This document shows positions 1,754 to 6,334 of a DNA stretch of 6,457 nucleotides, piece after piece (position 1 is the first letter of the stretch; each line of letters opens with the position of its first letter). This stretch comes from a virus (Duplodnaviria; Heunggongvirae; Uroviricota; Caudoviricetes), in the IMG/VR virus record IMGVR_UViG_3300029310_000158; one strand, given 5' to 3'. The notes under the pieces are model-generated. The model did not search any database. It had not been told where the DNA came from and saw nothing but the letters and a program-made list of their open reading frames with translations. Both the position numbers and the translations under genes were made by a program.

Positions 1754-4225
1754 TTAAGAATCAGCCTGACTCGGGATCAGTTTTTGCCAGATAACTGAAA
1801 CGTATTTTGCCTGGTAACGGGCGTCATCAAGTGCATTATGGCGCTCACCTTCGAATGGAATAGCCGTTCTGGCATCGAAGTCTATGGCTTTCCCCAGCTC
1901 AACGATTGTGCGTACATCGCGATCGTTGTAGTAACGCCACGGGCAGGGGATCCCCTGCCGTTCGTATGAACGGCGCAAAATCGTGTTGTCGAAGTTGGCT
2001 CCATTTCCCCAAACCTGAACAAAAAATTCACCGGAGTTTTCGTCGATAAATTCTCGCAATTGTAACAGTGCATCATCTAACGGGATTTCATCGGTCATAA
2101 TGGCAGATTGCGCTTCGCGTGATTGCTTAAGCCACCATTTAATGGTGTCCCGATCAATGACTCCGCCAGCAGTTTCCAGATCGATAGTCTTACTAAATTC
2201 CGGTCCCATATCTCCGGTTTGCGGATCGAAAAATATTGCACCTATTGAGATGATCGGGGCATCAGGATTTTTTCCCATGGTTTCAAGGTCGATCATTAGA
2301 TGGTCACACGTCCTGCTGGTGGATGTGATTTCGTGATGACCGTTCACCTTAATTGGGTGATCTGCCGTCTCGCCAGTTTCATTATCGCTATTGTGATGCT
2401 GATTGCCGCCAGTGTTCTCCTTGTGTGGATGTTCAGCGCCTTCCATTTCCTCCGGATCATCTTCCTGAACTTCAACCTGATACTCTTCATCGAATGTTTC
2501 TTGGTATGTTGCGTCGCCCATCACCGCGCCACAATCAGGGCAGTTGCCGCCGCCGGTCTGACCGCAGGCGGTGCAGACTTTTTCCACTTCCTGTTGCGCT
2601 ACTGGTTCAGGCTGTTTCGTTTCTGGCTCGTTTTGTAACGCATTTGGACTGTTTTGTTCCGCTTTTTGGTAGTTCCGTTCCGATTCATGCTGGTTCTGGT
2701 TCACAGAATCGCGGGTCTGGAGCCCCTTAACCCATTTCGGATCATTCGGGTCACTAATCCCTTCAACAAATTCACCACGTGATGCAGCAAGCAACTTATC
2801 GGCGTCAGGCTGGCTGATATTGGCTGCCTGCATAATTTTGTTTACTTCGTCAGCGGTAACTTTTATCGGCTCTGGTTGTTCTGAATCTTCAGCGGTATCT
2901 ACATTTTGCGGTAAGCCCGTGTATGTGCCATTTTTTCGGGCAAAATATTCTTCTTTTGTGATTTCAGTGGCGCCAGCAGCCAGTGCCTTATCCAGACCAG
3001 AGAGTTTGTTTGCGCGACCGTATTTTTCTCCGTCCTTATCTGCGAAGAGGAAATAGAACGGCCCCTCACGCTCTACAGATGGTTCAGCTTCCGGCGCGGT
3101 TTCATTTTTTGGGATATCAGATACCTCAGTTTCCACTGCATCAGTTTGTGTTTCTGATGACTGGAGAACATCAACAGTGCCCAGGTCTGTTTCTTCATTC
3201 TCAAACACGCCCTTTGTCGTCAGGTATTCGCAGATATATTTGTTCAGTGCTACGGGATCTTTGTGAATGTCGATCGGACGCTCACGGACAAGGCCAAAAA
3301 TAGTTTGGCGGTCGTAGCGAAGGGCATCAGGCTGTTTGCGCATTGATGCCGAGATACGCTTCCAGTCTTCGCGGTCGTTGTCGATAACTTCTTTTTTTGC
3401 CCAGCGATGGATGCTGCCGTCAATGTTTCCGGCATCCACATCACTAGGCCAGAGAGCGTAGGCCAGTTCGTCATCCAGTGTTTTCCATGTCTGCTTGTAT
3501 TCGCGATGAATGGCAGCAATGACCGGGCTGATTTTTCCTGTTGAATTTTCAGTGTACTGTTGATTGGCTCTGGCGCGGGCGAGATCAACAACAGACGTGT
3601 ATTTTCCGGTTTCCTTGCGTTCACCTTCGCGACGTTTTTTCCAGATGCGCATCTCTGCCTGAATTTCGGGCCATTTAGCACCAGGAATACATTTATGCTT
3701 AACCCACCCAATGGCGTGCAACTTAAGCTCCGGATACATGGCGTTAACTTCTGGCATTTTCATCAACGCTTCAACGATATGTCCGTCGAATGTTGCCATG
3801 TCTTCCTGCAACAATTCCTGTGCGCTAATAACCATATCAACGGTGATGTTTTCACATGTGTCGAACTTAACCATGACAGCGTTCTGTACTTCAGGGGCCA
3901 GCTTGTCAAAAGTGACGTTCATCGGATCGGATTCAGTCTCAACCGGGACAAAAGAAGCAGACTCCTCATCCCAGCGGTTTTCCTGCATATATTCAGCATC
4001 CCATGAATCGAGGGCAGGGCGGGGTATGCCAGGTTTATCCTCGCAGACAATAAATTTATAAGCGCAGTCCTGAGCAGCCGGATAATGTTCCAGGAATTGC
4101 CAGTGAAATTTTGCTCGAGCACGGCGTTCGTCGCCAGCTTCAATGGCTGTGGCTACAGCCACAGCGCCTTCTTCCCTTGTTGCCAGTTCGTCAGGAATAG
4201 CGGCGCAAATAAAGACTTTACTCAT
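1754..4225 (-). CDS. Large multidomain prophage protein (probable full-length YdfE-like protein): N-terminal domain of unknown function, acidic low-complexity linker with a CxxC-x7-CxxC zinc-ribbon motif, His-rich segment, C-terminal DEDDh (DnaQ-like) 3'-5' exonuclease domain
   Basis: Single ORF 1754..4261 (835 aa from a TTG). The most likely start is ATG at 4223-4225, preceded by GAGGT with an 8-nt spacer (823 aa); ATG at 4238-4240 is another option. Exo I motif MIDLETMG is at about 2282-2290, Exo II WGNGANFDNTIL follows, and Exo III ERHNALDDARYQ is at about 1837-1860. The zinc-ribbon motif CTACGQTGGGNCPDC maps to 2531-2575. By synteny it sits where ydfE lies in K-12 Qin, immediately downstream of ydfD. 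Confidence 0.8.
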   Translation of the reverse strand: MSKVFICAAIPDELATREEGAVAVATAIEAGDERRARAKFHWQFLEHYPAAQDCAYKFIVCEDKPGIPRPALDSWDAEYMQENRWDEESASFVPVETESDPMNVTFDKLAPEVQNAVMVKFDTCENITVDMVISAQELLQEDMATFDGHIVEALMKMPEVNAMYPELKLHAIGWVKHKCIPGAKWPEIQAEMRIWKKRREGERKETGKYTSVVDLARARANQQYTENSTGKISPVIAAIHREYKQTWKTLDDELAYALWPSDVDAGNIDGSIHRWAKKEVIDNDREDWKRISASMRKQPDALRYDRQTIFGLVRERPIDIHKDPVALNKYICEYLTTKGVFENEETDLGTVDVLQSSETQTDAVETEVSDIPKNETAPEAEPSVEREGPFYFLFADKDGEKYGRANKLSGLDKALAAGATEITKEEYFARKNGTYTGLPQNVDTAEDSEQPEPIKVTADEVNKIMQAANISQPDADKLLAASRGEFVEGISDPNDPKWVKGLQTRDSVNQNQHESERNYQKAEQNSPNALQNEPETKQPEPVAQQEVEKVCTACGQTGGGNCPDCGAVMGDATYQETFDEEYQVEVQEDDPEEMEGAEHPHKENTGGNQHHNSDNETGETADHPIKVNGHHEITSTSRTCDHLMIDLETMGKNPDAPIISIGAIFFDPQTGDMGPEFSKTIDLETAGGVIDRDTIKWWLKQSREAQSAIMTDEIPLDDALLQLREFIDENSGEFFVQVWGNGANFDNTILRRSYERQGIPCPWRYYNDRDVRTIVELGKAIDFDARTAIPFEGERHNALDDARYQAKYVSVIWQKLIPSQADS

Positions 4226-4317
4226 TTGTTTTAACCTCATGACAGATTTAAGGATGAACAAATCCCTGCCATTGCTGGCATATAAGAATGAAACCGGATA
4301 TTTATTACGGAACTGTT

Positions 4318-4694: not shown

Positions 4695-4863
4695 TATCGC
4701 GCCCTCAACAATGAGTTTTGTGATGCGGTGCCTGGTGCCTCCAGGTGACGTTAACCAGTTAACAATTAACGCCGGATACAGAGAATCCACCCATAACACT
4801 GTTTTTGGTTTTAACTGTTCCGCGTGCGCTCAGCCGCATTCACCACATCACAAAATTCACTTT

Positions 4864-4906
4864 AAAAAGGGCGGCAGAGCAGTCACGGAGTAAAACTGAT
4901 ACCGCC
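4864..4906 (-). terminator. Rho-independent terminator forming the DicF 3' end (GGCGG...CCGCC stem, then U5)
   Basis: On the minus-strand transcript, GGCGG pairs with CCGCC (with an internal CAG/CUG helix) and is followed by UUUUU (plus-strand aaaaa at 4864-4868). Confidence 0.7.
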
Positions 4907-4921
4907 AAACGTCACCAGAAA
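4869..4921 (-). ncRNA. dicF: DicF small regulatory RNA (53 nt; antisense regulator of ftsZ and other mRNAs)
   Basis: The reverse complement of 4869-4921 reads TTTCTGGTGACGTTTGGCGGTATCAGTTTTACTCCGTGACTGCTCTGCCGCCC, followed by TTTTT. This matches my recall of DicF, and it lies between ydfC and dicB as in Qin. Confidence 0.85.
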
Positions 4922-5262
4922 ATTGATAACAGAGGGCGTTGCAGCGGGGTTGTCACTTAAGCGTATGGTCAACCTGACAACCCGGTGTCCTCAACGGGGG
5001 AAGGAATAACCCCGCCATACTTACCGCCGCGCCATTTCGCGGATTGCCACAACCGGAAGCGCACGGTCGACGAAAATTTAACGACAGGCTATCTATGAAC
5101 CAGCTACCTCGCCGTGCGCTTTCGCGTTATGGTCTGACTTTTCAGGGAAATATCCTTTCAGTAAACTGTCAGTGCCGGATGCTCACCCGTGTCCGGCGCA
5201 CGCACTCCACCTCACCCGTGGAGAACTCCTTAATTACTAACCTTAGCTTTGTTGATTAGCTA

Positions 5263-5962: not shown

Positions 5963-6334
5963 TTATCTTTTATTTGTCCGCTGACGGGCTTTTAGTAATT
6001 CTTCAAAGAGTTTATTGAAGTTTTTTACTCGAGCTCGCATTTCGGCGAGCTGGGTATCCTGTTCTGATTCTGGCAGTGCATTAAACAGCTCAAGGAGCTC
6101 TAGTTCTTTGGGGGATAAGGCAACTGGCTTCTCAACAGGTGGTGTTGGTTGCTTGTCTTCATCGCCANNNNNNNNNNAAAGGTTCTTCCCTGTAGGTTCA
6201 CTATCACCCCGTTCCCATTGTGATACAGACACATGGGAGATTTTCAGGGCTTTAGCAAGAGACCTTTGGGTGTGTTTGAGGTTTTTCCGACGATACCTGA
6301 TGCGTTCGCCGATAGTTAAATTTTTTGTTTCCAT
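5963..6334 (-). CDS. dicA: Prophage repressor DicA (HTH XRE family, P22 C2-like), reading frame interrupted by an N run
   Basis: ORF METKNLTIGERIRYRRKNLKHTQRSLAKALKISHVSVSQWERGD... has an HTH motif and the C-terminus ...KNFNKLFEELLKARQRTNKR. It matches my recall of DicA (135 aa); here it is 123 codons, 4 of them X from the 10 N at 6168-6177. No obvious SD precedes the ATG at 6332-6334. Confidence 0.88.
   Translation of the reverse strand: METKNLTIGERIRYRRKNLKHTQRSLAKALKISHVSVSQWERGDSEPTGKNLXXXXGDEDKQPTPPVEKPVALSPKELELLELFNALPESEQDTQLAEMRARVKNFNKLFEELLKARQRTNKR
6168..6177. other. Run of 10 ambiguous bases (N) - assembly gap or masked segment inside dicA
   Basis: Ten literal n characters in the sequence. 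The flanking frame is preserved, but the ORF is about 12 codons shorter than the DicA length I recall, so real sequence (roughly 46 nt) is probably missing. Confidence 0.95.

Follow-up and report, generated by a model that had tools for sequence, protein, structure and literature searches.

In this report, we describe the intergenic spacer of about 340 bases that lies between ydfC and dicF (positions 5262-4922, minus strand) in a segment of a Qin-like lambdoid prophage (IMG/VR virus record IMGVR_UViG_3300029310_000158). The whole segment of 6,457 nucleotides, with its early-left operon on the minus strand, is referred to as the window. The spacer is probably the untranslated 5'-part of the precursor of DicF, a small RNA (sRNA), and it is organized as three separable modules, A, B, and C (Table 1). 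The most remarkable part is module C, a covarying pseudoknotted domain in a GC-rich stretch that an initial annotation of this DNA, made from the sequence alone, had noted for its composition only. The anatomy, conservation, covariation, and terminator coupling presented below were all shown in this analysis.

DicF was identified in the window with the Rfam model RF00039 (4920-4869, minus strand; 76.7 bits, E = 3.7e-16). Since the spacer is situated 5' to this bona fide DicF, on the same strand and within the ydfABC-dicF-dicB operon, it occupies the position of a precursor leader. Its upstream boundary is the stop codon of ydfC, which directly abuts it. The spacer is transcribed with the operon and is non-coding and structured, as had been proposed initially. 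The 441 nucleotides around the spacer were matched in 4328 of the 5426 complete E. coli genomes. In K-12-like genomes this match is 98.9% identical, and ydfC is the only RefSeq annotation under it. This is the same locus as the dicBF locus of the K-12 Qin prophage (Faubladier et al. 1990; Ragunathan et al. 2023, 10.1101/2023.04.14.536235), and the DicF species of 190 and 53 nucleotides are expected here too, with an RNase III stem and an RNase E site in the spacer.

Distant BLAST searches of 50,697 phage records demonstrated that the spacer splits into pieces that occur independently of one another. The hairpin region was found alone in an Oslovirus Stx phage and together with the middle part in N-carrying phages. 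The GC-rich 3'-part was found alone in cdtI, Ayreon, 2H10, Stx2c phages, a Salmonella phage, pPE4, and the P1/P7 family.

Table 1. Positions of the genes and RNA features discussed in the text, numbered from the first letter of the window.
Feature	Position	Strand	Description or basis
dicA-like repressor gene	6334-5963		open reading frame (ORF) list
ydfA and ydfB homologues	downstream of the dicA-like repressor gene, before ydfC	minus	
ydfC, 72 amino acids	5481-5263	minus	ORF list; RefSeq 'protein YdfC' under 98-100% identical matches
Shine-Dalgarno-like AAGGAG	5231-5226	minus	directly 5' of H1
Module A	5223-5134	minus	three small intercistronic hairpins
H1, CUCCAC-GGGUGAG-GUGGAG	5223-5205	minus	-9.2 kcal/mol, z -2.65; 7-nucleotide loop
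H2, GCCGGA-CACGGGUGAGCA-UCCGGC	5197-5174	minus	-11.6 kcal/mol, z -1.93; 12-nucleotide loop
H3, nested stem CUGAC...GUCAG	5172-5134	minus	fold
Module B	5132-5047	minus	long imperfect stem, RNase III substrate
Module B arms	5132-5112 with 5066-5047	minus	about 20 base pairs, one bulge, one A.C mismatch
RNase III cut (inferred)	5055-5058	minus	two independent estimates
Module C	5055-4937	minus	conserved 119-nucleotide pseudoknotted domain
Helix P1	5053-5046 with 4945-4938	minus	
Helix P2 (CCGCG/CGCGG)	5042-5038 with 5031-5027	minus	
Helix P3a (GGU/ACC)	5025-5023 with 4986-4984	minus	
Helix P3	5014-5010 with 4999-4995	minus	hairpin of variable length
Helix P4 (GGGUUGUCA/UGACAACCC)	4983-4975 with 4955-4947	minus	
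Pseudoknot GUAUGG/CCAUAC	5020-5015 (P2/P3 junction) with 4968-4963 (P4 loop)	minus	
DicF sRNA, 53 nucleotides, with intrinsic terminator and U-tract	4920-4864	minus	Rfam; terminator hairpin in fold

The pseudoknotted domain of module C

All of the nested helices of module C are formed in the minimum free energy fold of the window copy alone, and helices P2, P3, P4, and P3a were recovered independently with RNAalifold. When the window copy was aligned with those of phage P1, pPE4, cdtI, and a K-12-like genome, long invariant runs were found to be broken by compensatory changes. With 25 non-redundant sequences aligned by MAFFT, the paired fraction of the cells is 91.4%, as opposed to 33-51% when the partners are slid. 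Ten pairs change on both sides, compared with 0-5 for slid partners and with 0 of 500 shuffles. For 65 distinct copies aligned with the covariance model, 95.9% of the cells are paired (slid controls across the alignments reach up to 56%) and 15 of the 36 pairs change on both sides (2-4 when slid), with the reservation that an alignment fitted with a covariance model leans towards that model. The model itself (R1) scores 143 bits on the window copy.

The compensatory changes were found throughout the domain. The strands of the pseudoknot are 99-100% paired, and in phage P1 they are GCAUGG/CCAUGC. Helix P4 is compensated in Izhakiella (GGGUAACCA/UGGUUACCC), and a metagenomic variant is compensated as GGAUCACCA/UGGUGAUCC. 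Helix P3a is GGC/GCC in P7, and helix P1 is GUUGUGGU/ACCACAAC in cdtI. The frequent G.U pairs in helix P1 fit the operon strand only. The bases of the junctions are invariant, unpaired, and common to unrelated phages, and such bases suggest a ligand that is supplied by the host. Judging from this pattern, module C probably binds a conserved host factor.

The distribution of module C was determined by pattern scans of one-genome-per-species bacteria, IMG/VR, and metagenomes, which returned about 320 loci. The bacterial loci are from Escherichia, Shigella, Citrobacter, Trabulsiella, Erwinia, and Izhakiella. In these genome, viral, and metagenome collections the scans identified only prophages of the Enterobacterales and P1-like elements, plus three chance matches. 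Module C is present in 4315 of the 5426 complete E. coli genomes (~80%), with up to eight copies per genome, and in 510 plasmids, most of which are P1-like. When the complete cdtI genome was searched with the covariance model, it gave a single copy, as did each of the other loci that were searched, which corresponds to one copy per phage. No annotation was found under module C among the matches listed (5 E. coli and 12 plasmid rows). Rfam 15 gave no family match in 4922-5262 at E values up to 1, and none at E values up to 0.1 on the homologous stretch of phage P1, cdtI, F1055, or the metagenomic locus L275. The last of these is the most divergent copy (L275, 1517-1636 minus and 1867-1991 minus). 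In it, helices P1 and P4 are fully compensated, there is no terminator within 150 nucleotides, and the domain lies ~230 nucleotides downstream of a sequence resembling a transfer RNA (tRNA) and upstream of ~700 nucleotides without convincing ORFs.

The leader of the ban operon in P1/P7 contains a true homologue of module C (87-91 bits) that is followed by a strong terminator. This homologue overlaps the 'dicF-like region' of phage P1 (AF234172, 68791-68892), an annotation that was named for its similarity to dicF and that covers only the 3'-half of the domain and the terminator. The part that is conserved in phage P1 is the domain upstream of DicF and not the DicF seed.

Module C is closely coupled to a terminator. 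An intrinsic terminator was located 50-107 nucleotides after the P4 loop in 310 of the 317 loci, and most of the remaining loci have a longer terminator hairpin. Helix P1 is joined to the terminator by a freely exchangeable linker, a single-stranded 'seed' of 8-45 nucleotides that varies in sequence, as in UUUCUGGUGAC (DicF), CCAUGUUGAUUACC, AUUGCUGUGUGUAG, and ACUGCUUU. Variable seeds combined with a common domain and a terminator make the locus a family of DicF-type cassettes. The window (4869-4936) and loci L003, L009, L026, L053, L075, and L147 have the same terminator (GGCGG...CCGCCCUUUUU) and the same downstream sequence with different seeds, and different seeds at the same position imply sRNAs with different targets. 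The distance of module C from the start of the transcript varies. In phage P1 it begins ~25 nucleotides beyond the ban promoter, and after it come a strong terminator, which has a UUCG loop, and then tRNA genes. It is found ~290 nucleotides into the leftward leader in Ayreon and cdtI, and ~110 nucleotides after a 5'-terminal hairpin in the mEp460-type phages. In five other loci (L008, L022, L024, L025, and L264), a long terminator hairpin is found ~60-150 nucleotides after module C, and the next ORF has its Shine-Dalgarno sequence and AUG in the loop of this hairpin, so termination there would truncate the next gene after about ten codons.

A conserved, pseudoknotted multihelix junction with invariant junction bases, positioned directly upstream of an intrinsic terminator, is the typical anatomy of a riboswitch attenuator. 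Module C could therefore be the sensor of such a device, in which a ligand or factor would set the terminator and thereby the choice between a short RNA and read-through into dicB/kil. In the equilibrium fold of the 190-nucleotide RNA of the canonical DicF class (4864-5057, minus strand), the terminator is predicted to be disrupted, with a mean predicted terminator-pair probability of 0.15. In this fold GGCGCGGCGGUAAGUA of module C is paired with the 3'-arm of the terminator, the 3'-strand of helix P1 is paired with the 5'-arm, and the DicF seed is enclosed in a hairpin. For this class, the folding suggests that the long form may be inactive until it is cut. However, when 25 classes were folded from helix P1 to the U-tract, the alternative fold was found in only 3 of the 23 that could be scored, namely canonical DicF (0.15), pPE4 (0.02), and one P1-like metagenomic variant (0.27). 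In most of the other classes the terminator forms independently, with a probability of 0.72-1.0. A conserved structured domain that resembles a sensor is thus present, but a conserved pairing that excludes the terminator was not found among these classes, and the linker is here the freely exchangeable seed of an sRNA. There is also no match to an Rfam riboswitch, and the gene context suggests no ligand. We consider a riboswitch at this position to be quite improbable.

Alternatively, module C might be a cis-acting processive antiterminator like the put elements of phage HK022. The nascent domain would bind RNA polymerase and let it read through the terminator of DicF and those beyond it, which would allow dicB and the genes for recombination and integration to be expressed in the absence of an N protein. 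The putL and putR elements (Hwang et al. 2022, PMC9378689) are likewise structured RNAs encoded in cis in an early operon, upstream of terminators and with no annotated N, and both put and module C would rely on a ligand from the host, conserved across enterobacteria. The early operons in which module C is located are under repressor control. It lies directly before the first strong intrinsic terminator, and polymerase has to pass this terminator if the downstream genes are to be expressed; in some prophages the terminator overlaps with the beginning of the next ORF. An N gene is annotated in none of cdtI, Ayreon, mEp460, pPE4, F1055, P1, and P7, none was found in the window, and two close relatives that do have N are without module C. 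The invariant unpaired bases in unrelated phages also fit a ligand that belongs to a host machine. Against this, the covariance model detects nothing in the putL/putR (immunity) region of HK022 at E values up to 10, and no sequence similarity was found. The only string in common is the 9-mer GCGCGGCGG, for which the probability of a chance occurrence is roughly 0.03-0.1 by a rough estimate. A put RNA is present in each early operon, leftward and rightward, and it binds the beta-prime zinc-binding domain of RNA polymerase and suppresses termination in cis. The put elements consist of two stems in ~70 nucleotides (PMC9378689), whereas module C consists of five helices and a pseudoknot in 119 nucleotides, occurs as a single copy per phage with none in the rightward early operon, and is immediately followed by a terminator. 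This tight coupling of 25-60 nucleotides to a terminator is not needed by put. The anticorrelation between N and module C is also not strict, since the Rac-type phages lack both. A put-like function is therefore unlikely.

Three other identities for module C were rejected. In the related loci that were scanned, ARAGORN identifies the tRNAs of phage P1 and finds nothing at module C, the Rfam tRNA model gave no match in the spacer of the window, and the CCA-like strings after helix P1 have no fixed position as judged by eye. The score of a local alignment with E. coli 5S ribosomal RNA, calculated because loop-E mimicry had been suspected by eye, was reached by 363 of 1000 shuffles. An RfaH ops-like GGCGGUA occurs both in module C and in the terminator; it differs at the eighth base, which we take to be needed for the ops hairpin.

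Module B and the strand shared with module C

The arms of module B form an inverted repeat (I2) below a variable top of 45 nucleotides. The module folds with a free energy of -37.6 kcal/mol (z -3.54), which no shuffle among 200 equalled. Stems with the same length and position and a different sequence were found in Rac-type, cdtI-type, Salmonella, Erwinia, Izhakiella, and Trabulsiella prophages, including GAUGAGAGCAUUG/CAGUGCUCUCUUC and AGGUAAGAGCAUUCC/GGAAUGCUCUUUCC, and all of them are closed by CA(C/U)AAC...GUUGUG. The stem of module B thus covaries across phage groups. The top of module B in Salmonella F1055, Erwinia, and Izhakiella (L008 at ~2370-2500, L024, and L025) holds the sequences GGUUCGAUUCC and GGUUCAAUUCC, which resemble the T-arm of a tRNA; no tRNA was called there by ARAGORN in these three loci.

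Ragunathan et al. (10.1101/2023.04.14.536235) report, with reference to Faubladier (1990), that RNase III makes the 5'-end of the 190-nucleotide DicF and that RNase E makes the 53-nucleotide form, and they place the RNase III-dependent 5'-end between +813 and +814. Counting 190 nucleotides back from the 3'-end of DicF (4868) leads to position 5057 of the window. If the transcription start site is taken from the promoter TTGACC-17-TAATCT, which was read by eye in the K-12-like locus L004, the cut between +813 and +814 corresponds to 5056/5055. The two positions are both low on the 3'-arm of module B, 1-4 nucleotides before GGUUGUGG and helix P1. A stem of about two helical turns is found at the RNase III site, with the inferred cut inside the stem or at its base; it counts against this placement that it was made by arithmetic and from a promoter read by eye, and not by alignment to the published figure. 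At this inferred position, module B is the RNase III substrate that makes the 5'-end of the 190-nucleotide DicF, and module C is the body of that species.

Two suggestions made for the spacer can be judged from these results. It had been proposed that the spacer is the processing platform for the release of DicF. The spacer does contain the RNase III site, but this site is not at the twin hairpins. It is 120-170 nucleotides downstream of them, within the long stem at 5132-5047. The suggestion of a second small RNA holds only in the sense that the 190-nucleotide species is the conserved unit, and no separate promoter was found for it. No sigma-70-like promoter was detected on either strand of the spacer, and Ragunathan et al. 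(2023, bioRxiv 10.1101/2023.04.14.536235) likewise report that no internal promoter was found there.

The sequence GGUUGUGG (5054-5047) is at once the basal 3'-strand of module B and the 5'-strand of helix P1, and its upstream partner, CAUAAC, and downstream partner, GCUGCAAC, are near-copies of one another. When the whole spacer is folded, the upstream pairing prevails, and in the fold of the 5'-trimmed RNA helix P1 is formed. Since the same nucleotides serve both the base of module B and helix P1, cleavage by RNase III should free helix P1 to form. We propose that GGUUGUGG would be paired with CAUAAC before cleavage, and that the removal of this partner by RNase III would allow GGUUGUGG to pair with GCUGCAAC. 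This exchange of strands would close module C and bury the new 5'-monophosphate end in a helix. A paired 5'-end slows the 5'-end-dependent attack of RNase E, and a buried end would explain a discrete 190-nucleotide RNA that accumulates and is converted by RNase E to the 53-nucleotide form. The closed module C would then be the structured 5'-body of a long DicF-family RNA, governing its stability and its maturation by RNase E to the 53-nucleotide sRNA. We think that this is the most likely role of module C.

Module A and the coding content of the spacer

The twin hairpins H1 and H2 had been singled out at the outset for a GGGUGAG loop motif that they appeared to share. The underlying 10-nucleotide direct repeat CTCACCCGTG is exact at 5182-5191 and 5211-5220, with a spacing of 29. 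When up to one mismatch is allowed, shuffled sequences average 0.20 matches per window, and two matches were reached in 4 of 200 shuffles. Both hairpins are found where they had been placed, but the copy in H1 is not confined to the loop. Its last three bases (GTG at 5218-5220 on the plus strand; in the RNA, the CAC that starts CACGGGUGAG) belong to the stem, and the loops of H1 and H2 are therefore not equivalent.

Module A was compared among 105 distinct upstream sequences and 127 loci containing H2. The stem of H2 (GCCGGA/UCCGGC) is nearly invariant and its loop is variable: CACGGGUGAGCA was found in 59 loci, CACGGAUAAGAA in 28, ..GGGUGAACA in 13, and the K-12 form, ..GGGUGCGCA, in 9. The core of this loop in relatives is GGAUAAG, GGGUGAA, or, in K-12, GGGUGCG, and the closing pair is broken in the K-12 form. 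The loops of H1 include GGGUGAG (63 loci) and GGGUCAG (20 loci). In ~35 of the 127 loci, H1 is swapped for an unrelated hairpin or lacks its 5'-arm. One phage group has ACCACACG-UGACAG-CGUGUGGU in the position of H1, the 5'-arm of H1 is missing in another, and two loci have lost the sequence that separates the repeats. In the Stx phages P13374 and phi367, H2 occurs alone between two genes on the same strand. The apical part of H3 is C(C/U)CUGA-AAAG-UCAG(G/A)G in relatives and covaries between CCCUGA/UCAGGG and CUCUGA/UCAGAG. The loop motif is thus not conserved. Since the loops vary, H1 is replaced or deleted, and neither stem has a compensatory change, the common motif is best regarded as a lineage-specific duplication. 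The twin hairpins are real in the sequence but ordinary, and they should not be given the status of a motif.

These comparisons also bear on the possibility that the twin hairpins are a two-site platform whose GGGUGAG loops would be recognized by a protein dimer or by two identical factors, in the manner of boxB/N or a coat protein and its operator. An identical 10-nucleotide sequence in two hairpins 29 nucleotides apart is rare by chance, H1 and H2 both fold stably, and the stem sequence of H2 is kept in many phages, including Stx phages. However, the loops vary freely (GGAUAAG, GGGUGAA, GGGUGCG, and GGGUCAG) and are unequal in size (7 and 12 nucleotides), and H1 can be replaced, lose an arm, or be fused to H2 by deletion between the repeats. 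In the K-12 copy, with which the biology of DicF was established, the loops are not identical and the closing pair of H2 is broken, and an N-type gene was not found in the window. A platform of this kind is very improbable. A lambda-type nut site consists of a boxA and a boxB hairpin with a conserved loop, with an N gene in the operon. This identity was rejected for H1 and H2, the loops of which have 7 and 12 nucleotides and are variable. No boxA string was seen by eye in the spacer, and the window proteins tested do not match N_peptide, which the N protein of locus L147 does match.

The most economical reading of the module A hairpins is that they are intercistronic stem-loops. Stem-loops at a 3'-end stop PNPase and RNase II. 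According to Ragunathan et al. (10.1101/2023.04.14.536235), fragments containing ydfA were undetected in an rnc mutant, and RNase III processing was suggested to stabilize the upstream part of the transcript. From the loss of these fragments and the blocking of the two exonucleases by stem-loops, the module A hairpins could be barriers to 3'-exonucleases that would guard the 3'-end of the ydfABC fragment after the downstream cut.

Several loci carry clean deletions in this leader, between two copies of CACGGGUGA in L026 and L145 and between the CGCGAAA(G/U)GCGC copies of modules B and C in L312. Such short direct repeats therefore drive the rearrangement of the leader.

The initial conclusion that the spacer contains no convincing ORF was borne out. 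Only ORFs of 31 amino acids (minus strand) and of 37 and 71 amino acids (plus strand) are present, none of which has a match in Pfam, the large protein databases being outside the scope of the search. The ORF list, Pfam, and the reading frames of the homologues gave no indication of a conserved coding ORF. The spacer is also richer in GC than its surroundings (52-56%, compared with 43-53% for the flanks in 100-nucleotide windows), and this excess is modest, so the description 'much more GC-rich' was overstated. The Shine-Dalgarno-like AAGGAG is present and has no AUG nearby. A GUG is found 10 nucleotides downstream (5215-5213), which opens an ORF of 10 codons that ends in the second repeat. 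The common GGGUCAG variant of H1 destroys this GUG, and the 10-codon ORF is not conserved.

We give hardly any credence to the idea that all or part of the spacer encodes protein or regulates an opposite-strand gene as DNA, the candidates being the small ORF in the hairpins, the 71-amino acid ORF, or a promoter for the opposite-strand genes of related phages. It is favored by the GUG that follows AAGGAG, by the presence of the 71-amino acid ORF, by the 'hypothetical proteins' that some phage records annotate here, and by the plausible opposite-strand genes (sieB-like and others) that lie 25-40 nucleotides from module A or the leader in several phage groups. However, none of the ORFs matches Pfam, the GUG is lost in common variants, and no sigma-70-like promoter was found on either strand. 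The 71-amino acid ORF starts with TTG and is interrupted by stops or frameshifts in several homologues, and the indels in homologues are not multiples of three in length. The compensatory changes and the strand-specific G.U pairs point instead to RNA structure on the operon strand. In L010, L036, L038, L041, L151 (4663-4863), and L342 (3338-3949), the gene directly upstream of modules A and B is on the opposite strand; these genes encode sieB-like proteins or unknown proteins of 64-95 amino acids, and their start codons are 25-40 nucleotides from the hairpins or leader.

On the 3'-side of dicF, the operon continues with an STnc100-like stretch, dicB, ydfD, an exonuclease of 835 amino acids, xis, and int. 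DicB (PF05358) and a YdfA-type DUF1391 domain were identified among the window proteins with Pfam. The stretch from the DicF terminator to dicB (4717-4857, minus strand) resembles the Salmonella sRNA STnc100 with 38.4 bits, compared with a gathering score of 47. Rac-SA53 has the same resemblance following its DicF-like terminator (43.8 bits), and in phage P1 it was found in a weak form upstream of tciA. This suggests a second conserved structured leader before the division-inhibitor genes. The exonuclease ORF (1754-4261, minus strand) is intact in the window, while in the K-12-like locus L004 the exonuclease is a pseudogene beside a fragment of an IS2-family transposase. The xis and int ORFs are also full-length, and this prophage arm looks less decayed than that of K-12 Qin. 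A run of ten N at 6168-6177, inside the dicA-like repressor gene, looks like an assembly gap or masking.

Relation to known systems and implications

The processing of DicF by RNase III and by RNase E was already known. In the accessible text of the K-12 dicBF papers, the region is treated as a long untranslated stretch, and the covarying stem, the shared strand, and the pseudoknotted domain were not found described there; nor was a prior description of any of the three found in Rfam or in the literature searched.

The lambda N leader and sib have long imperfect RNase III duplexes in the early-left transcript, and cleavage changes the fate of the flanking RNA. Relative to these stems, module B is different in that its basal 3'-strand doubles as the 5'-strand of the closing helix of the next domain, and cleavage should for this reason trigger refolding. 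We know of no described equivalent of an RNase III stem that shares a strand with the closing helix of the next domain.

Several points weigh against the functional interpretation given here. In Rac-type and N-carrying phages, module C is replaced by a mini-hairpin of 16 nucleotides (GGUUGUG-AAUA-ACAAC), and module B and the seed and terminator are retained. Module C is thus dispensable for making a DicF-type RNA. The mini-hairpin in the same place indicates that module C behaves as an optional expansion of a hairpin that closes the 5'-end, and a pure role in processing or stability leaves ~100 nucleotides with invariant unpaired bases unexplained. The homologues are closely related, and the covariation rests in part on P1/P7, Izhakiella, and one metagenomic variant. 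The stems of H1 and H2 have no compensatory change in any locus compared, and their function at the RNA level is putative. In related phages an opposite-strand gene starts right beside module A, and the DNA could serve otherwise. The functional roles of all of the modules are computational predictions, and the strand exchange, the stabilizing role of module A, and the binding of a host factor are what we infer from them.

DicF was among the first bacterial sRNAs to be found, and its 190-nucleotide form has been treated as a mere intermediate. We tentatively suggest, as a possibility that falls somewhat short of probable, that module C represents a new class of phage-borne structured RNA, a self-contained pseudoknotted domain that is exchanged between lambdoid phages and P1-like phage-plasmids and that binds a conserved component of the host. 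This component might be RNA polymerase, an adaptor of a ribonuclease, or a different RNA-binding protein. With the same degree of reserve, the 190-nucleotide 'DicF precursor' may be functional in its own right, with cleavage by RNase III as the switch for closure of the domain.

If the domain is functional, an unannotated structured RNA is present in about 80% of E. coli genomes, including K-12, with one to eight copies in each, and it is also carried by the P1-type phage-plasmids and several Stx- and Cdt-converting phages. Module C is positioned at the entry to operons for the cell-division inhibitors DicF, DicB, and Kil and for recombination, and in phage P1 for tRNAs and the Ban helicase. 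It could thus set the output of toxic functions upon derepression of the prophage. The strand exchange triggered by RNase III, if true, would be a simple example of RNA refolding that is coupled to processing.

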